Counted from the stretch's first letter, positions 734-63,412 are shown. The stretch: DNA of 64,000 nucleotides from Escherichia coli (GCF_050320075.1 NZ_CP190018.1); one strand, 5' to 3'. The notes: a model not told the origin generated them from the sequence alone. Numbers and translations: made by a program.

Positions 734-1803
734 GTGTCGTACAGCCCTTCCCGTTCCACGGCGGTGTTCCCTTTTCCTGGGCGAACCCGCCGCACTGACT
801 CCCGCACCGCCAATCGTCCGTGCAGCAGCAGCGAGCCCACCGGAGCATCCGGGCGAATCAGCCGCTGTTGCAACATTTGCACCGCTTCATTGCCTAGCTC
901 ATCGCGTGGCACATGCACAGCCGTCAGGGGAACATCCTCGATTGCCGCAAGGTTAAAGCCGTCGATACTCATCACCGAGACATCCTGTGGTACGCGCAGA
1001 CCACGACGATGTAGCGCATTTACCGTTCCCGCCGCCATAAAATCCCCGCCGACCAGAAACGCCGTCGGCAACGTCTTGCCATTGGCGGCATCCAGCCACG
1101 CTCCGACCTTTTCTTCCGCTTCTTTAGCGCTAAAACTGCTGATATTCAGCAAATGACGGTCATGGTGAAAGGCCAGATTATGCTGACGCCATGATTCTTT
1201 AATCCCTGCAAACCGCTGCTCCATAGTGTAGCGGCGCAGGCACATCACATTCATCACCTCCCGGTGACCCATTTCAAACAGATAGCGGGCGGCGAACGCG
1301 CCAATTAACCGATGGTCCGGCGCAATCGCCGGGAGGCGCATTCGTTCATCACGGCAGTTGATCAGCACACAAGGCTTAGCGAGATCGGCGGCCAGATCAT
1401 GGATGTGCGGATCGTCAATCCCCAGCAGGATCGCCGCCTGCGTATCTGCTTCATTCATTCGCGAGAGAAATAGCGCGGGATCGCTGTCAAACTCCTCCAG
1501 CGCGCAGTAACGCAGCCGCACTTCATGCGGCGATAACGCTTTGCTGATGCTCTGGATCACACGGTAATAAAAGATATCAGATCGTTGGTCAAAAGCGCGT
1601 TGCGGCGCGAAAATAATCAGGTTGTTCAGCAACATACGACCTGCTGCCATGCCATCCATCACGCCCAACTCACGCGCGCAGGCCAGCACCTGTTCGCGAG
1701 CGCGTGCACTGGTATTCGCTTTGCCAGCCAGCACCCGCGAAACCGTACTCGGCGATAGCCCGGTACGTGCGGCGATATCGGCGATTTTCAGCTTCTTGTC
1801 CAT
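700..1803 (-). CDS. LacI-family transcriptional regulator (367 aa from ATG at 1803)
   Basis: N-terminal HTH (MDKKLKIADIAARTGLSPSTVSRVLAG) and periplasmic-binding-protein-like sugar-binding body; ATG checked at 1801-1803 (cat on + strand); 34-bp convergent overlap with ybiU. Confidence 0.8.
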   Translation of the reverse strand: MDKKLKIADIAARTGLSPSTVSRVLAGKANTSARAREQVLACARELGVMDGMAAGRMLLNNLIIFAPQRAFDQRSDIFYYRVIQSISKALSPHEVRLRYCALEEFDSDPALFLSRMNEADTQAAILLGIDDPHIHDLAADLAKPCVLINCRDERMRLPAIAPDHRLIGAFAARYLFEMGHREVMNVMCLRRYTMEQRFAGIKESWRQHNLAFHHDRHLLNISSFSAKEAEEKVGAWLDAANGKTLPTAFLVGGDFMAAGTVNALHRRGLRVPQDVSVMSIDGFNLAAIEDVPLTAVHVPRDELGNEAVQMLQQRLIRPDAPVGSLLLHGRLAVRESVRRVRPGKGNTAVEREGLYDTQLSIPNARLP

Positions 1804-2097
1804 TTTGTGATCTGCCTCTAATTCGGAAATGACAGAATTTTCATGAGCAAAAAAGCCCATTCTGTCTGGCATTAAATCCATTTCAGTAATGTATATCAGT
1901 CACTCATGGAAAAACGTGCACAAAACCCGCTTTCTTTCGCTTTTAGGGTCTCTTACTGTGAATTGGTAGAACAACTTCCATACAAAAATAATGGAAAAAC
2001 GAACAATAAAGACTTTATTTATCAAAAAGTTAAAAGTGGTGTGACAACTCCATTCTGACGTTGCCACACAAACCCTATACCATTCTGTGGAGTGCAT

Positions 2098-3399
2098 ATG
2101 AGTCAGGGTATCAATAACGATATGACTGCCAGTAAACCGCGCCATATCGTCAAAAATCTGCGTTGGTGGATACTGGTCCTTTTTTTGCTCGGTGTTACTG
2201 TCAACTACATCACGCGTAACTCGCTGGGTATTCTCGCCCCCGAACTGAAAAGCAACCTGGGGATTACCACCGAACAATATTCCTGGATTGTAGGTGCTTT
2301 CCAGCTCGCCTATACCCTATTCCAACCGTTGTGTGGATGGCTGATTGACGTCATTGGCCTCAAACTGGGCTTTATGATCTGCGCGGGACTGTGGGCGCTG
2401 GCCTGTCTGATGCATGCGGGGGCGGGAAACTGGGTACATCTGGCGCTGTTGCGCTTCTTTATGGGCGGTGCGGAAGCCGCGGCAACCCCAGCAAACGCCA
2501 AAACCATCGGTGAATGGTTTCCAAAATCAGAACGCCCGATCGCCGCAGGCTGGGCAGGCGTCGGTTTTTCCATCGGTGCCATGCTGGCCCCACCGATTAT
2601 CTATTTTGCCCACGCTTCATTCGGCTGGCAGGGTGCATTTATGTTCACTGGCATCCTGGCGATGCTGTGGGTGGTGCTGTGGTGGGCGTTCTATCACAAC
2701 CCGGATAAGCATCCGAACCTCAGCAAAGCCGAGCTGGACTTTATCCGCCAGGATAACGAAGCGCCCCCGATTAAATTACCCTTTCTGACCGCACTGAAAA
2801 CCGTGGGCAAAAATAAACGCTTTTACGGTATCGCTATCCCGGCCTTTATGGCAGAACCGGCGTGGGCGGTGATGAGTTTCTGGGTGCCGCTATACCTGTC
2901 CAAAACCTATGGCATGGACCTGAAGCAGATCGCATTATTCGCCTGGTTGCCGTTCCTCGCCGCTGATCTTGGCAGTATTGCCAGCGGCTATCTGACCAAA
3001 CTTTACACCCGCCTGTTTGGGCTGAGTCGTGTGAACTCCGTTGTCGCATCATCGGTCAGTGGCGCATTCTTGATGGTTTCGCTGGCGGTGATGGCCTTTA
3101 CCAATAACCCGTATATCGCCATCGTCCTTATTTCCATCGGCGGCTTCGGTCACCAGATCATCTCCTGCATGCTGAGCGCACTGGTGGTGGAATCCTTCGA
3201 CAAAGGTCAGATGGCCACTGTTAACGGCATGCGCGGTTCTGCCGCGTGGATCGCAAGTTTCCTGTTCTCCCTGATTATCGGGGTTACCGCTGACAAAATC
3301 GGCTTTAACCCCCTGTTTATCGCCATGGGCTTCTTTGACCTGATTGGCGCTTTCTTCCTGGTCACCTTTATTGCTGAACGTCGCGCAAAACGCGCCTGA
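2098..3399 (+). CDS. MFS transporter, anion:cation symporter (ExuT/GudP-like) family
   Basis: ORF track 2092-3399; multiple TM segments and ExuT-like sequence pattern; ATG at 2098 preceded by GGAG (ORF track starts 2 codons earlier at GTG). Confidence 0.75.
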   Translation: MSQGINNDMTASKPRHIVKNLRWWILVLFLLGVTVNYITRNSLGILAPELKSNLGITTEQYSWIVGAFQLAYTLFQPLCGWLIDVIGLKLGFMICAGLWALACLMHAGAGNWVHLALLRFFMGGAEAAATPANAKTIGEWFPKSERPIAAGWAGVGFSIGAMLAPPIIYFAHASFGWQGAFMFTGILAMLWVVLWWAFYHNPDKHPNLSKAELDFIRQDNEAPPIKLPFLTALKTVGKNKRFYGIAIPAFMAEPAWAVMSFWVPLYLSKTYGMDLKQIALFAWLPFLAADLGSIASGYLTKLYTRLFGLSRVNSVVASSVSGAFLMVSLAVMAFTNNPYIAIVLISIGGFGHQIISCMLSALVVESFDKGQMATVNGMRGSAAWIASFLFSLIIGVTADKIGFNPLFIAMGFFDLIGAFFLVTFIAERRAKRA

Positions 3400-56510: not shown

Positions 56511-57389
56511 ATGCTGTTTAAATATTGTCCTATTAATGAGTATTCAATTAAATCTCTAGTGGAAAACAAACTATATCTTAATCATCTCAACATGATGAAT
56601 GACAGTGCTGAAGGTTTTTGTAAGATAATAAGTGGTTTCCCAGATTATAATGAAAAAACTGAGAGATATGATTTGATAATAAAAACATGGTGTGGAGAGT
56701 CTGGCTGGCTACCTTCTGAATATGAATATAACGAATATATTGATTCAATGAGAGAACTGGAACCAAATGTCCCGCAATTGCTGGACTCTGCAAGGATATC
56801 ATGCTTTACGAATACGGCGTTAAACCCTACAATGTGGGCTCATTATGCTAACAACAGAACAGGTATATGTATAGAATTCGATCAAGACAAAATAAGAGAA
56901 CTAGAGGATATCTATATCTTTGACGTCAAATATAAAGATCGCCCTCCGACTATTGATACTGCAGTACTAACATTAATAGCTGATCAGGTGAACTATAATC
57001 ATGATGCAATTTATGATGATTATCAAGAAAAGTTCAAACATCTTTATGAACAAGCATTTGACGAGGGAAGAAATTTGCTTTTGGAAATTTACAATGGAAT
57101 ATTGGCAACTAAATCTCAAGAATGGTCTTATGAACAAGAAAAACGGCTAATATATATTTTATCCTTCTCACAAGAAGACAAATTGGCAAAAAAATATAAA
57201 ACTGGCATAAACATATCACTCCCTGAAGGATGCATTAAAAGTGTTATCCTAGGTGAGAAGACAAGTGAGCATGATAAAAAACTTATAGTTTCAGCTATAA
57301 AAAAACATTCTAAACACATTAAGTTGAAGAGAGCTACAATAACACAAGGCGAATATTTATTATCTATTCGTGATGAAGTTTTTAGCTGA
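56511..57389 (+). CDS. DUF2971-like protein of unknown function (prophage cargo)
   Basis: 292 aa; N-terminal MLFKY...L.ENKLYL...NDSAEG and central SCFTNTALNPTMWAHYANNRTGICIEF match what I recall as DUF2971 hallmarks; visibly AT-rich by eye. Confidence 0.6.
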   Translation: MLFKYCPINEYSIKSLVENKLYLNHLNMMNDSAEGFCKIISGFPDYNEKTERYDLIIKTWCGESGWLPSEYEYNEYIDSMRELEPNVPQLLDSARISCFTNTALNPTMWAHYANNRTGICIEFDQDKIRELEDIYIFDVKYKDRPPTIDTAVLTLIADQVNYNHDAIYDDYQEKFKHLYEQAFDEGRNLLLEIYNGILATKSQEWSYEQEKRLIYILSFSQEDKLAKKYKTGINISLPEGCIKSVILGEKTSEHDKKLIVSAIKKHSKHIKLKRATITQGEYLLSIRDEVFS

Positions 57390-57934: not shown

Positions 57935-58348
57935 ATGGCTGACATTGTCACTGGTTTGACCGCACTCAAAACCGCCTTTGATTTAGCAAAAGATATAAAA
58001 AATGCCACTGGCGCATACAATGATGCAGAAATGAGGCTTAAGTTTAGTGAGCTTTATAGCGCGCTATCTGAAGCCAAAATAGAACTGGCTGATACACAGC
58101 TAGAAATGTATGAACTAAAGCTGAAGATCGAAGAGTTGCAAGCTAAGCTTGATGCATCGGACGAGCTTGAATATAGGGAAAACGTATACTGGAGGGCCTC
58201 ACCTATCAATGGCAAACCAAACGGTCCTTTTTGCCCAAGATGTTATGAAAGTTCAGAGAAGAAGCTATCTTCAATGAGTCAAGTAACGGGGCATGCAACT
58301 ATTGCTGGAAAATACAAATGTAATACTTGTAACGCCTACGTTAGATAA
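57935..58348 (+). CDS. Small coiled-coil protein with C-terminal CxxC...CxxC zinc ribbon (prophage cargo)
   Basis: 137 aa; heptad-like LKFSELYSALSEAKIELADTQLEMYELKLKIEELQAKL; CPRCY ... CNTCNAY; good SD. Confidence 0.6.
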   Translation: MADIVTGLTALKTAFDLAKDIKNATGAYNDAEMRLKFSELYSALSEAKIELADTQLEMYELKLKIEELQAKLDASDELEYRENVYWRASPINGKPNGPFCPRCYESSEKKLSSMSQVTGHATIAGKYKCNTCNAYVR

Positions 58349-58684
58349 AAAGCCGTTATGGGGCTGGGACGGAGGCTCAAATCCTCTCGTGCAAAAATTC
58401 AGCTAAAACTTTTGTTCAGGAGACTCTGAAAGATACCAAGAAGTCTGCTGACGAGTGGTTTATTTACTAATTAGCACGTAAAATCTATTATGGCTGGAAA
58501 TCATTCAATACTCGTACTATCGAAAGTTCGCCAGCCGACAGCAAAACGCTATTGCATGGCAGGGATTGCAGGCCTCTCGATATTCGGTGCTAAGGATGTA
58601 TCAACACGGTTCAGCAGAACCCGATGCGTCTTCAAAACCGCAGCAACGATATCTCTTCCTCCGTTCCATTTACAGCCACCTTTT

Positions 58685-58993
58685 TCACCCTCGATTAACC
58701 AACAACCAGACCAGAAGACACGCTACCACCGGCACAGCAAAATCCATCAGGCTTGCCATATCCCACGCGCGTGGGTCAAAACCGCCCCACCACGGCATAT
58801 TCATTCGCTTGCCATGCCCGAACATTTCGATCCAGCGATATTCTGCCTGGGTGTGTTCACGCGCAATGAAGAACGTACAACCGGCTATCGCCCCGTAAGC
58901 CCAGTTCCCGGTAAAAAGACCAATCAGTAGCTGCGCAGCCACAGCACAAAGCGCATGAAGGAAAGGTGTTATATCCATTTTCATCCCACCCAA
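58685..58993 (-). CDS. Small predicted membrane protein (prophage, unknown function)
   Basis: 102 aa with two hydrophobic segments; several alternative Met starts; lies just downstream of the tail-fibre genes. Confidence 0.5.
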   Translation of the reverse strand: MGGMKMDITPFLHALCAVAAQLLIGLFTGNWAYGAIAGCTFFIAREHTQAEYRWIEMFGHGKRMNMPWWGGFDPRAWDMASLMDFAVPVVACLLVWLLVNRG

Positions 58994-59020
58994 TAAAACG
59001 GGGCGCTCGGCCCCTTAATA

Positions 59021-60061
59021 TTATTTAGACGCAAGCGCCGCATCAATTGCAGATAATCTTTGTCTTAATTCTGCGTTTTCTTCTTCCAGTGCTGTTATTC
59101 TGTCGTCTGACTCTCTGGCTACCTGAACAAGCAAGCCAGTAACACCAGAATAATCTACTGTGTAATAACGTTCACCTTCTTCACCTTCCGATCCGCTCGC
59201 ACCGTCCTGATATTTCATTACGGAACCTACAACTTCTGGGATTGCTTCCAGAGCTTCCTGTGCAATGACACCAGCATAGGGCATACCGTTTTCTTTAAGC
59301 GTGTATGTATAGCCGTTCATTTTACGGATGCGGTCGGTTGCATTATCGATCACCTGAATGTTGTCTTTCAGATCCCGGTCGGAATGCTGGTTAAATGCGG
59401 TGGCATGACATGCACCATTAACGCTTAACATATAGGTGTTATCGGTATTTTTCTGCGCATAGAACATATAAGCGCCACCATCAACACCGACTTCATAAAC
59501 AACAGGACGGCTGGAGTTGCCCCACAATTGAGCAGTAACACCAGCATAAGCGGTTCCCTGTGTGTTTAATGTCATGGTTGACCCATGATTGGCATATTTG
59601 ATCTGTAATGTGTCGGTGTAATCAAATTTAATAAGCGCGTTACTTCCACGCTTGCTGTATGACATAAGGCAGTTACCCATTTTGAGGTATCCGCTGTCAC
59701 CGGGAAAAATCATCGTACCGCCATAAAGGTTGGTAAAGTCCCAGCAAATGTTTGTCCCGTTATCGTTCAGGTTAAGGCGCGCCATTGCGTTACCTGGACT
59801 GTCTATCCATTTTTTGAGGTATAGTTCGCAATATGCATCCTCAACACCTGCCGTCCTGTGAGTTGAGCGGAGTTTTCTCCCAAATATAGCTCCGCTAGTT
59901 GGCAATACCTGCTGATACCATGAAGCAGACCAGTCACCAACGGTTTCATCTTTGCTGTCTACATATGATTTTGTTGCGTAGCTTCCTTGATCGTTTTTTA
60001 ATTTGCTAACGTCGGATTTTAGCGTTTTGATGTCATCAGGAATTACTGTCGATGTAGCCAT
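59021..60061 (-). CDS. Tail fibre / spike-like protein with C-terminal intramolecular chaperone (peptidase S74-like) domain
   Basis: 346 aa; C-terminal SDRDLKDNIQVIDNATDRIRKMNGYTYTLKENGMPYAGVIAQEALEAIPEVV plus terminal coiled coil (ITALEEENAELRQRLSAIDAAL). Confidence 0.65.
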   Translation of the reverse strand: MATSTVIPDDIKTLKSDVSKLKNDQGSYATKSYVDSKDETVGDWSASWYQQVLPTSGAIFGRKLRSTHRTAGVEDAYCELYLKKWIDSPGNAMARLNLNDNGTNICWDFTNLYGGTMIFPGDSGYLKMGNCLMSYSKRGSNALIKFDYTDTLQIKYANHGSTMTLNTQGTAYAGVTAQLWGNSSRPVVYEVGVDGGAYMFYAQKNTDNTYMLSVNGACHATAFNQHSDRDLKDNIQVIDNATDRIRKMNGYTYTLKENGMPYAGVIAQEALEAIPEVVGSVMKYQDGASGSEGEEGERYYTVDYSGVTGLLVQVARESDDRITALEEENAELRQRLSAIDAALASK

Positions 60062-60070
60062 TTTTCTTCC

Positions 60071-60352
60071 TCACATCCAGCCACGAAGTTGATGCTCAAC
60101 AGCAACCACGTATTCATCGAATATTGACGGTGTTTTCACATCATTAATGATGCGCACGTTTACAAAATATCCGTCTTCCTTAACACATACCGGTTCGCCA
60201 TCTTCATTCAGTTCTCCGGTTTCTTTGTACACGTTACCTATCACGTCAATAAGAATATCATCCTGCATCGACTCATCATCATAATAGCCAGTGCTATCCA
60301 TAAAGGCCGAAAAATCGGCCCTGTCGGCAAATTTAAGTGTTAAATCTTTCAT
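60071..60352 (-). CDS. Small acidic protein translationally coupled to stf (possible fibre assembly/accessory protein)
   Basis: 93 aa; ATG overlaps stf stop (ATGA); no family recognised. Confidence 0.5.
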   Translation of the reverse strand: MKDLTLKFADRADFSAFMDSTGYYDDESMQDDILIDVIGNVYKETGELNEDGEPVCVKEDGYFVNVRIINDVKTPSIFDEYVVAVEHQLRGWM

Positions 60353-62748
60353 TTAATACTCTCCCCCATTTGCGCATCAGTTAATTCTTTATGCCAGAGA
60401 CGAAGATTTCTCAAATGGCCGAATAGATGACGTGTCCCTGATGTGGCTTGACCTCCTATTCTAATAAAGGTCCGCGTTTTTACGCCCGTCCATTCCGTTT
60501 CAATGGTTTTAGTAGCCTCACCGTTAGAAACTACTCGTTTAGTACCGTCAGAATAAATATTAAAACCACCAATGAATTTTCGAACATCCGTTCGACCAGT
60601 AAACAAACTAGAAACGTAACTACTTGTCGACGCTTTATAAGTTTGCATATAAAGCTGACCGTAATATCTCTCGGTTGTGTTAAAAGCGTATGTGATTGAC
60701 TCAATAGGCGGCACACCAGAAAAATCAAAAATACGCGGTGCTACATTAGGGGGAATATCGCCCCAATTCCTGTTAACCTCGACCAAACAAGTAAGCGGTC
60801 TGTTATAAATGTTGTTTTCGGTCGGGATCGTAACCATATCACTCGCACGAGTCGCCGCCGTCGCTCCTGATATAATAAAAGATGATACACAAGGCCCATC
60901 TTCTACTTGTGGGGTGGCCAGATAAATATAGTCACCAGATACGGTTGCCCCGCTCTGCTTAGGAGAATACTGTATCTGAGAGCCTATTTTTAACTCCCCA
61001 TCAATTGCCTGAATTGTTGCCTCTGCAAAAATCCATCCGGTAGCTTCGTCCTTTCTGACTCTCGCTGTAATCCTTGAGGCAGCACCGCCTGTCATATTAA
61101 TTTCAAGCGTTTGTGTATCAATATACGCATCACCAAGAAAAGTTGTTGCGCTACCGTCATATTTATCAAACCGGATACGCAACCTTACCTGCAGTTCTGT
61201 TTTAAAACGACATGAGGTTGTCACGTATTTATTATCGCCTGAGACATCAACTGACTTTGTTGCAGCAATTGATGCCATATTAATGGCTGAGGTTTGCCCA
61301 ATCAGAGAATCGTTACAGACAAACTTTCCATAGGTAAAACCAAAACTATCCGTCCCGGTTTCGGGAACATCCATATTTGACGATCGCCCCCAACTGGCAG
61401 GGCTTTCCGAATTGAGCATGTAGTTCGCTCTTTGCCCCTCAATAAGCAGGCCATCACGTTCAAATCGTGGCTCGTCAATGGCAGCCTCTGTCAGCACACC
61501 AGATTTATTAATATAGGTTGCTTTCGATGCGCGTTTAAACTTTACAACCTTATCGCCAGGCATCGTTATTTCATCATCACCAATAACAATCTTTTTATAT
61601 GACGGCGAAAACCCCGTAATCATATCCAGTGAATCGTTAAACGGTATCCACACATCAGGCAACGGCTGCAAAACTTGTTTATACGGCTCCGCTGCCTGGC
61701 TTGCATACTCTCTGGCTGCGTCTTCACTTGCTTTAGCTGCTGTCTGGCTTGCTGCCGATGCTTGCGCCGAGTTCGCCGCTGTAGTCTCGCTCGCCTTTGC
61801 GTTGTCTTCACTGGTTTTTGCAGCTCTTTGACTGTTGGCTGATGCCGTGGCAGAAGCAGCCGCCGCGCTTGCAGAACCAGCTGCGGCACTCTCGCTTTGG
61901 GCCGCTGCATCCTGACTGTTTTTCGCCGCAGTTTCGCTGGCTTTGGCATTCGTTTCGCTGGTCTTCGCTGCAGTCTCGCTTGTCTTTGCGTTGGTTTCAC
62001 TGGTTTTTGCAGCTCTTTGACTGTTGGCTGATGCCGTGGCAGAAGTAGCCGCCGCACTTGCAGAACTGGCTGCCGCTCTCTCGCTTTGGGCTGCTGCATC
62101 CTGACTGTTTTTTGCTGCGGTAGCGGAGTTTGCTGCGGCACTCTGACTCGATTCTGCAGCCACCTCGCTATTTTTCGCATTAGTTTCGCTGGTCTTTGAA
62201 GCTGTCTCACTCGCTTTTGAGTTGTTTTCTGATTTTTTGGCTGCAGTCGCGGAGTTTGCCGATGCAGTCTGTGAGGCCGCTGCCGCCTGTGCGCTGTTAG
62301 CTGCATTCGTTTCTGAGGTTTTCGCCGCGTTCTTCGATGATGCCGCTGCAGTTTCGGATGTCTTTGCCGCCGCTGCGCTCTGAGAGGCGGCTTCAGCGTT
62401 GCGTGCCGCTTCTTCCACCATTTCCTGAAAACGGCGCAATGCCTCCGGCATGACATCATCTTCCGTCATGGCACCGAGAAAATCATTCAGCGTCCCCGGA
62501 CTGGAACCTTCATAGACGGTAATGGTCCCGGCATGTGAAGGCGGAAAACCTTCAACCAGCAGGATGACGCTGTACTGGCCATACTCAACGTCCATACTGT
62601 AACGCCCGGCTTCATCAGGATTTTCAGAGGCCACCGTGTTCACCAGTACCGTGGTGCTGTTACGCTTTGCCTTCAGTTGAATAGTGCAGTTCTGTATTGG
62701 TTTTCCCGCACCATCTTTCAGCACACCTGAGATTTTTACTGCTGCCAT
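60349..62748 (-). CDS. stf: Side tail fibre protein Stf-like (lambda Stf N-terminus, Ala/Ser/Thr-rich repeat shaft, LamG-like distal domain)
   Basis: N-terminus MAAVKISGVLKDGAGKPIQNCTIQLKAKRNSTTV... matches lambda Stf as I recall it; C-terminus ...FGHLRNLRLWHKELTDAQ resembles LamG-domain ends; ATG at 62748. Confidence 0.8.
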   Translation of the reverse strand: MAAVKISGVLKDGAGKPIQNCTIQLKAKRNSTTVLVNTVASENPDEAGRYSMDVEYGQYSVILLVEGFPPSHAGTITVYEGSSPGTLNDFLGAMTEDDVMPEALRRFQEMVEEAARNAEAASQSAAAAKTSETAAASSKNAAKTSETNAANSAQAAAASQTASANSATAAKKSENNSKASETASKTSETNAKNSEVAAESSQSAAANSATAAKNSQDAAAQSERAAASSASAAATSATASANSQRAAKTSETNAKTSETAAKTSETNAKASETAAKNSQDAAAQSESAAAGSASAAAASATASANSQRAAKTSEDNAKASETTAANSAQASAASQTAAKASEDAAREYASQAAEPYKQVLQPLPDVWIPFNDSLDMITGFSPSYKKIVIGDDEITMPGDKVVKFKRASKATYINKSGVLTEAAIDEPRFERDGLLIEGQRANYMLNSESPASWGRSSNMDVPETGTDSFGFTYGKFVCNDSLIGQTSAINMASIAATKSVDVSGDNKYVTTSCRFKTELQVRLRIRFDKYDGSATTFLGDAYIDTQTLEINMTGGAASRITARVRKDEATGWIFAEATIQAIDGELKIGSQIQYSPKQSGATVSGDYIYLATPQVEDGPCVSSFIISGATAATRASDMVTIPTENNIYNRPLTCLVEVNRNWGDIPPNVAPRIFDFSGVPPIESITYAFNTTERYYGQLYMQTYKASTSSYVSSLFTGRTDVRKFIGGFNIYSDGTKRVVSNGEATKTIETEWTGVKTRTFIRIGGQATSGTRHLFGHLRNLRLWHKELTDAQMGESIK
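61809..62122. repeat. Tandem direct repeat (period 189 bp) inside stf
   Basis: cactggtttttgcagctctttgactgttggctgatgccgtggcagaag... occurs at 61809 and again at 61998. Confidence 0.8.
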
Positions 62749-62812
62749 ATCCACTCCACAAAAAAGCCCGCCTGAACCGGCGGGCTGTCATAACACTGTG
62801 TTACCTGGCTAA

Positions 62813-63412
62813 TCAGAATTTATAACCGACACCCACGATGAAACCGTCAGTGTGCCAGTCACCACTGCCGGAGCCTTCATAAGCAAGGTCAATGGCCACG
62901 GATTCGGTCGGGTTAAACTGCACGCCAGCCCCCCACGCCAGAGACGTGTCGCTGTGGCGACCGTCATCACTTCCGTTCAGCACATCGTACGTTTTCCCCT
63001 TATTGTCAGTTACGCGGAGATAATCCCCGGAGAAGGTCGACACACGGCTGTAAGCCACGCCCGCCATCGCATACGCGCTGAACCATTCATTCACGCGTAC
63101 AGACGGCCCCGCCATCATGCTGAACCAGCGGTTACGCACTGAATCTTCATGCCAGCGGGTATCGCTGTAACGGGTAATCTGGCGATTCTTGTCTCCTGCA
63201 TAACTGAATGACGTCACCAGCCCCAGCGTGTCCGTAAATTCATAACGGTATTTCACGTTAATGCCCTTCAGGTCATCACTGCCTGGCATATCAGTATGGG
63301 CCTGAAGATACCCGGCGCTTAGTGTGGACTGATGCTCTGCTGCGCTCGCTGGCGTACCAACGGCAACCAGCCAGACTACTGCGGACAGAATAACAGCACA
63401 TAATTTACGCAT
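62813..63412 (-). CDS. lom: Outer membrane protein Lom (Ail/Lom family)
   Basis: 199 aa, near-identical to lambda Lom as I recall it (MRKL.A.ILSA...[11 protein letters not shown]...GVGYKF). Confidence 0.85.

Follow-up and report, generated by a model that had tools for sequence, protein, structure and literature searches.

In phage lambda, the side tail fiber gene stf is followed by the gene for the Tfa assembly chaperone, and the question raised by a lambdoid prophage of Escherichia coli is how its side tail fiber is built when two other genes stand behind stf. The prophage lies in a stretch of 64,000 nucleotides (nt) of E. coli chromosomal DNA (GCF_050320075.1, NZ_CP190018.1), called the window throughout, where its neighbors are bioA and ybhB. 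Read along the minus strand, the gene order is J (represented by its C-terminus), lom, stf, an open reading frame (ORF) for an acidic protein of 93 amino acids (aa), an ORF for a protein of 346 aa, a gene for a 97-aa protein, and a short relic of tfa. The reading preferred here is that the prophage makes a two-part side tail fiber from a horizontally exchanged three-gene cassette, in which a distal tip with a self-cleaving Peptidase_S74 domain docks on Stf. A probability of about 65% seems appropriate for this reading as a whole.

The three genes in question are closely packed on the minus strand. The stf gene (60349-62754) encodes 801 aa when read from a GTG at 62754, and the Prokaryotic Genome Annotation Pipeline (PGAP) places its start at an ATG at 62748. 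The ATG of the 93-aa ORF (60071-60352) overlaps the TGA of stf as ATGA. A spacer of 9 nt (60062-60070), in which a putative Shine-Dalgarno element, GAGGAAG, overlaps the 93-aa stop codon, separates this ORF from the 346-aa gene (59021-60061), whose product is called a 'tail fiber domain-containing protein' by PGAP. A terminator-like hairpin (59000-59014, minus strand), consisting of GGGGCCGAGCGCCCC and then GTTTTATT, lies directly 3' of the 346-aa stop codon. The earlier note on this DNA had described such a series of stf, coupled acidic ORF, and second fiber gene, and all of its coordinates and features were borne out. By profile comparison, Stf matches phrog_1419 over its full length, the 93-aa protein matches phrog_1361 (E = 5e-45), and the 346-aa protein matches phrog_4563 from end to end (E = 2e-219); the latter two matches are far beyond chance.

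The 346-aa protein ends in a Peptidase_S74 intramolecular chaperone (IMC) domain (residues 227-346; 59024-59383, minus strand), which directly follows a beta-structured fiber domain. PF13884 covers residues 227-278 in a match of 52.8 bits (E = 4.7e-14; Pfam cutoff 22), and a structure-profile match aligns the domain with the chaperone part of phage S16 gp37 (PDB 6f45), with SDRDLK placed opposite SDRRIK. The profile search that had been proposed as a check on S74 homology is thus positive, and the signature motifs that first pointed to the domain were correctly read, with SDRDLKDNI at residues 227-235, GYTYT at 250-254, and AQE at 267-269. Within S227-D-R-D-L-K232, a serine opens the domain and a lysine follows five residues downstream (codons 59381-59383 and 59366-59368, respectively). 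Neither residue varies among four distant homologues, each is at least 90% conserved across a set of 43 sequences, and PF13884 is found in all listed homologues except for a few partial or truncated entries. A Ser-Lys dyad with this spacing is known from the K1F endosialidase and from T5 pb1. The terminal coiled coil that had also been reported corresponds to a predicted long helix (residues 304-344), but this helix is part of the chaperone domain rather than of the mature fiber. Judging from the sequence, it should leave with the cleaved domain and be absent from the mature fiber.

Just before the putative cleavage site, residues ~170-226 (59384-59554, minus strand) form a fiber domain related to one in the C-terminal region of T4 gp34; the family profile matches the structures 4uxe, 5nxf, 5nxh, and 9x3r with E-values of 1e-8 to 3.5e-8. 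Farther upstream, residues ~58-128 are beta-rich and without recognizable relatives, and residues 9-28 are predicted to be helical. [quoted passage not shown] The gene is under purifying selection, with a median ratio of nonsynonymous to synonymous substitution rates (dN/dS) of 0.22 over 254 allele pairs and of 0.13 in the chaperone domain.

The proximal partner, Stf, carries a lambda-type beginning and a different end. Residues 5-133 are PF08400 phage_tail_N (Pfam, E = 2.8e-65), and the N-terminus also matches solved chains named 'Tail fiber protein' (9e7m and 9mgh, E = 2.5e-49). The C-terminal region (residues ~356-801; 60352-61689, minus strand) is LamG/galectin-like and represents the part of Stf borne by the cassette; residues 437-637 within it match the NCBIfam model GTA_spike_fiber (E = 6.9e-12). 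The last 430 residues are 53% identical to the C-terminus of gp22 of phage IrisVonRoten, which was described as a galectin-like domain by the BASEL authors (PLoS Biol 2025, PMC11990801), and identity is 46% over the whole BLASTP alignment with gp22, which spans Stf residues 133-800. Compared with the matching region in 17 other phages that carry the cassette, identity over these 430 residues is 39-78%. The tonn homologue gives a weak Laminin_G_3 match that falls below threshold (20.3 bits vs. a cutoff of 27.6).

The same three genes recur in several phage families as a fiber gene with a LamG/galectin-like end, an ORF of ~92 codons that overlaps it by 1-4 nt, and a fiber gene with an S74 end that begins 2-12 nt farther on, where this gap in the other families is counted from the stop of the small gene to the conserved M-A/V-T start. 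Carriers include the T1-like Warwickvirus phages tonn, BEBK14, and swan01, the Seuratvirus VogelGryff, the Nonagvirus JenP2 (whose third gene is annotated 'endosialidase-like'), a Dhillonvirus cassette in which the third gene is assigned by its N-terminal motif alone, and the T5-like Tequintavirus phages IrisVonRoten (gp22-24), L6jm, EC122, PMBT29, and ev219. In the Tequintavirus third genes, the S74 domain was looked for by its motif only, and it was not seen in L6jm or EC122. These diverse loci come from GenBank phage records; scans of IMG/VR with the small proteins of IrisVonRoten and tonn gave 3 and 0 loci, respectively. The small ORF overlaps the LamG-ended fiber gene by 1-4 nt in 21 of 22 diverse loci, which are all of those with an intact upstream fiber gene.

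What unites the third genes most clearly is their start. Across families it follows the pattern M-A/V-x-T-x-T-x-I-P-x-D-I-x-x-L-K, in which M1, T3, T5, I7, P8, D10, I11, L14, and K15 do not vary in four phage families. Identity between families is 50-75% for the first 16 residues vs. 22-42% for the remainder of the protein. In the window, this motif is MATSTVIPDDIKTLKS (residues 1-16; 60014-60061, minus strand), a proposed docking element, and MATSTVIPDDIKTLK fits TxIPxDIxxLK at the N-terminus of the protein, after the 9-nt gap from the 93-aa stop. Together with the C-terminal half of Stf and the 93-aa gene, the N-terminus of the 346-aa protein makes up one conserved unit whose parts travel together through many phage families. 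The Kuravirus-type distal fiber that was examined, from phage ManiMatter, has neither the N-terminal motif nor a small ORF upstream, and its class of distal fiber was modeled by the BASEL authors on a different proximal fiber (PMC11990801). The lack of both features in ManiMatter fits with the three elements forming one junction.

The cassette is also common among E. coli prophages. Several complete E. coli genomes contain the 4.2-kb stretch around it at 100% identity, and when this stretch is used as a query, at least 80% of it is covered in 373 of 5426 complete genomes. The cassette also occurs in the sequenced phages Tritos, HannyBb, and PhiR63_1, to which the 4.2-kb stretch is 94% identical. 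To sample its alleles, 80 related E. coli prophage loci were collected from IMG/VR, 76 of them with downstream sequence, and every one of these 76 has a gene with the conserved N-terminus after a 9-nt gap. An intact allele of exactly 346 aa is present in 31 of the 80 loci, and 34 carry an allele of ~234 aa (loci L015, L016, L052, L074, L088, and others), a relative of tonn gp60 whose tip is short and which has a coiled coil and an S74-like end. Cleavage of this shorter allele would leave a predicted mature part of ~113 aa, mostly coiled coil. The two alleles have their N-terminal ~20 residues in common, and near-identical 93-aa proteins (up to 98.9% identical to that of the window) are paired with either one, which places the exchange point just after the shared N-terminal motif. 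The sample also contains shortened genes of the 346-aa type, with 90, 189, 194, or 299 codons (loci L012, L014, L054, L085, and L010).

Comparison with lambda reveals where the cassette was inserted. Stf residues 5-275 are 58% identical to lambda orf-401, and beyond residue ~275 there is no similarity to lambda Stf. At the DNA level, similarity to lambda within stf is limited to 62396-62940 (83%) and to 29 nt at 62300-62328. It resumes only at 58542-58675, where the DNA matches the 3' end of lambda tfa with 76% identity. There, the last 28 codons of tfa remain (58552-58635, minus strand; matched by tblastn to residues 167-194 of lambda Tfa with 68% identity and E = 3e-9), called a 28-aa 'tail fiber assembly protein' by PGAP and representing the only Tfa-related sequence at the locus. 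Given that similarity stops within stf and resumes at the tfa 3' end, the cassette and the 97-aa gene together took the place of the 3' part of stf and of most of tfa. The module is therefore mosaic relative to lambda, as had been claimed, but the accompanying view of a tfa slot with new occupants is too simple, as the slot was not merely refilled. Lambdoid phages exhibit at least four solutions at this locus: Stf with Tfa (lambda), a one-piece Stf with an S74 end (mEp460), a LamG-ended Stf with the small protein only (21, ev243, and 4A7), and the full three-gene form seen here. A DinI-like fragment (~58390-58470, plus strand), considered a pseudogene by PGAP, also lies near the cassette, and this fragment and the tfa relic are scars of earlier module exchanges. 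An invertible segment was considered as well, since Tritos has a PinR gene nearby, and it was set aside: no invertase gene was seen among the ORFs of the window or among the genes annotated at an identical locus in E. coli, although inverted repeats were not searched for.

From these observations, the following scheme for fiber assembly seems most likely. Stf would serve as the proximal rod, anchored to the tail by its lambda-type N-terminus and carrying a lectin-like distal half in place of the lambda tip. The 346-aa protein would form a short trimeric distal fiber whose folding is driven by its own C-terminal S74 domain. This domain would then cut itself off at Ser227, with Lys232 as the probable base, to leave a mature product of ~25 kDa, and a Tfa-type chaperone would be unnecessary for this tip. 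The N-terminal ~16 residues are likely to dock the distal fiber onto the end of Stf, the 93-aa protein, or both, and the middle part of the protein would be the receptor-binding region. The 93-aa protein would act as a dedicated partner of the LamG-ended fiber, whether it assists assembly or forms a structural connector. The receptor would most likely be a surface glycan such as O-antigen, and a receptor specificity differing from that of lambda, as was suggested at the outset, is a reasonable inference. The presence of the 346-aa protein in virions, its docking, its autocleavage, and its receptor are all inferred. For IrisVonRoten, the BASEL paper presents an AlphaFold-Multimer model in which the distal fiber gp24 is attached to the proximal fiber gp22 and links the T5-like tip class with a C-terminal IMC to O-antigen recognition (PMC11990801).

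Several points weigh against this reading. Docking on Stf rests on the co-occurrence of the genes and on a single prediction in the literature, made for a homologous module. In 5 of the 80 prophage loci, the gene of the 346-aa type is a truncated copy, which indicates that the distal fiber is being lost in part of the population. The AlphaFold2 model of the 346-aa monomer is poor (pLDDT 65.9, predicted template modeling score 0.36), and a search of the PDB with its fold gave nothing at E = 0.001; a weak monomer model is as expected for an intertwined trimer. Finally, phages 21, ev243, and 4A7 and rV5-like phages keep a LamG-ended fiber and the small protein and have no second fiber. The second fiber is therefore optional, and serving as its adaptor cannot be the sole role of the small protein.

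This last point bears directly on the 93-aa protein, for which the two-part reading leaves a choice of roles. Its isoelectric point is 4.09, with 21 acidic residues (D+E) vs. 8 basic ones (K+R), and it is 35-94% identical to the homologues compared. Every homologue in the databases is named 'hypothetical'. No match was found in Pfam, NCBIfam, or PADLOC, and the PHROG annotation is uninformative. AlphaFold2 confidently predicts a small alpha/beta fold (pLDDT 81.7), for which the structural neighbors include none that is informative and no likeness to known fiber joints. An identity as Tfa was ruled out, because the family has no similarity to lambda Tfa (hhalign probability 0.1%) and no chaperone match in Pfam, NCBIfam, or PHROG. 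A literature search likewise revealed nothing specific on the lambdoid form of the cassette or on the role of the small protein or its detection by virion proteomics.

Two further ideas regarding this family were discarded. A PKD domain was suggested by giant PKD-repeat proteins from metagenomes (P0255, P0257, P0258, and P0287; 1677-3677 aa), as the family profile falls in register with every repeat of some of these giants through the pattern LtLxFxD ... W ... GYxVxVRxxDD. The individual repeats score only 2-17 bits, summed over 8-14 repeats, and none of the 47 family members matches PKD models even at E = 10; moreover, the predicted alpha/beta fold differs from the all-beta, Ig-like fold expected of PKD. 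The matches to the giants are thus treated as an additive artifact, with a register whose consistency is curious. It had also appeared that the small protein stands behind S74-ended fibers in rV5-like phages, which was wrong, as the upstream fiber of CarlMeissner ends LamG-like.

With CarlMeissner so assigned, the small protein is kept behind a LamG-ended fiber without a third gene in phages 21, ev243, and 4A7 and in this rV5-like phage, which ties it to the LamG-type fiber end and not only to the second fiber. In 4A7 (locus L094), the position expected for the 3' part of stf is taken by an insertion sequence with three transposase genes (917-3333), which lies immediately upstream of the ~92-aa gene; both this gene and the 97-aa gene are intact.

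Perhaps the 93-aa protein is a nonstructural chaperone for the LamG-type end of Stf, analogous to Tfa and absent from virions, with the 346-aa fiber binding Stf directly. Its gene is in the tfa position and translationally coupled to stf, its family persists wherever the LamG-ended fiber occurs, even without a second fiber, and the protein is small, acidic, and composed of a single domain. This role is assigned tentatively, at slightly less than even odds. It is also possible, though the odds lie clearly against it, that the protein has a structural role at the tip of Stf, as a connector or cap that provides the docking site for the motif of the second fiber, in the manner of the small proteins that serve as joints in T4's long tail fiber. 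Such a role would account for the triad of co-occurring elements (LamG end, small protein, and N-terminal motif), for the service of nearly identical small proteins to both distal alleles, and for the tight coupling of the small gene on both sides. A connector is harder to reconcile with the retention of the small protein in phages that have no second fiber and with a predicted structure unlike known fiber joints, and the published model of the IrisVonRoten module describes no role for the small protein. A broader conjecture, which should be regarded as unlikely, is that the phrog_1361 family is a joint that caps LamG-ended lateral fibers and offers a universal socket for the TxIPxDIxxLK N-terminus. 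If true, siphoviruses of at least six lineages, including lambdoid prophages, could plug interchangeable, self-folding receptor-binding tips into the same fitting.

Both of these roles are compatible with a two-part fiber, whereas a different architecture would follow if the 346-aa protein were an independent short fiber held elsewhere on the tail tip, for example by J or by the N-terminal region of Stf, and thus a second, parallel receptor-binding device. The gene does have its own ribosome-binding site and start codon, the second fiber is optional in some relatives, and its contact with Stf is only inferred. Yet the N-terminal motif is conserved despite very different tail tips (lambda-like, T1-like, T5-like, and Queuovirinae), and only the genes for the LamG-ended fiber and the small protein travel with it. 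Furthermore, Kuravirus distal fibers share the body of IrisVonRoten gp24 and start differently, and ManiMatter, as noted, has no small protein gene upstream. An independent fiber is therefore improbable. Far less credible still is that the 346-aa gene is a decaying, nonfunctional fragment of a longer, S74-terminated Stf like that of mEp460, because the similarity of residues 84-337 to this one-piece protein (44.5% identity), the match of phrog_6578 to both Stf and the 346-aa protein, and the truncated copies in some prophages are outweighed by an exact length of 346 aa in 31 of 80 loci, the low dN/dS values, a start, ribosome-binding site, and terminator of its own, a specific N-terminus conserved across families, and the presence of the gene in sequenced phages.

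The surroundings of the cassette include a few other features of note. A second terminator-like hairpin, with a GC-rich stem of 8 bp followed by a run of T residues, lies between lom and stf (62765-62786, minus strand), and a terminator is annotated at the same position in phages 21 and mEp460. The gene for the 97-aa protein (58685-58978, minus strand) is a PGAP coding sequence that matches phrog_1443 (E = 1e-58), a family without known function, and its phage 21 homologue is annotated as a membrane protein with two transmembrane segments. This gene also neighbors cassette genes in phages 21, ev243, 4A7, and Tritos. It lies 3' of the cassette in the window, where the hairpin at 59000-59014 stands between it and the 346-aa gene, and likewise in Tritos; in 21, ev243, and 4A7 it lies directly 3' of the ~92-aa gene. 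Between ybhB/attR and the fiber module, a gene for a DUF2971 protein (56511-57389, plus strand) matches the PADLOC candidate defense family PDC-S31 (E = 9.5e-38), and it is followed by an ORF of 137 aa (57935-58348, plus strand) with a weak match to a zinc ribbon at its C-terminus. These two genes look like prophage cargo, possibly with an anti-phage role.

Regarding the wider meaning of the locus, the cassette probably sets the primary, glycan receptor for a common family of E. coli lambdoid prophages. A conserved N-terminal adaptor combined with exchangeable tips of 346 or ~234 aa amounts to a plug-in logic with which lambda-based particles could be retargeted. The proteins are already present in RefSeq and in sequenced phages, annotated as tail fibers with an S74 domain, and the architecture is described for a T5-like phage. 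Thus, the earlier suggestion of a different fiber-assembly logic is valid insofar as the arrangement differs from that of lambda, but the architecture is one that is already widespread and partly described. Finding the cassette in a lambdoid prophage confirms an architecture already in the databases and partly described for lytic phages, and it is an ordinary result of modest interest beyond the role of the 93-aa protein.

Among known systems, the closest is IrisVonRoten (Bas32, Tequintavirus), where gp22-gp23-gp24 repeat the three genes of the window in their order, down to the overlap of 4 nt and the gap of 9 nt (PLoS Biol 2025, PMC11990801). The small protein gp23 is 38% identical to the 93-aa protein, whereas the alignment of gp24 (574 aa) with the 346-aa protein is confined to two parts, the N-terminal motif and the chaperone domain. 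No similarity was detected in the 346-aa protein to the gp24 region that the BASEL authors call a T4 gp12-like receptor-binding domain. The proximal fibers also differ at their anchors, as Stf has a lambda-type N-terminus (PF08400) and that of IrisVonRoten binds the T5 collar, and the setting here is a temperate lambdoid prophage.

The K1F endosialidase, the L-shaped fiber protein pb1 of T5, and gp37 of S16 share with the 346-aa protein the C-terminal S74 domain, the Ser...Lys spacing, and the long terminal helix. The 346-aa protein is much shorter than these, with a mature part of ~226 aa, and it is encoded by a separate gene behind a carrier fiber. Its domain before the cleavage site is T4 gp34-like, and no similarity to the tip of T5 pb1 was seen. 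The Stf of mEp460 (1202 aa) occupies the same lambdoid context, also without tfa, and has the related C-terminus mentioned above, but it is a single polypeptide that lacks a LamG-type end and has no 93-aa gene behind it. By analogy only, the two-part fiber can be likened to LtfA and LtfB of the T5-like phages DT57C and DT571/2, branched lateral fibers in which a second receptor-binding fiber is carried on the first and widens or changes O-antigen specificity; the abstract mentions no ~92-aa gene between the two (Viruses 2016, PMC4728585). Relative to Stf and Tfa of lambda, the module retains its position after J and lom, a homologous Stf N-terminus, and even a relic of tfa, whereas the distal half of Stf is unrelated and Tfa has given way to an unrelated 93-aa protein and a second fiber with a chaperone of its own.

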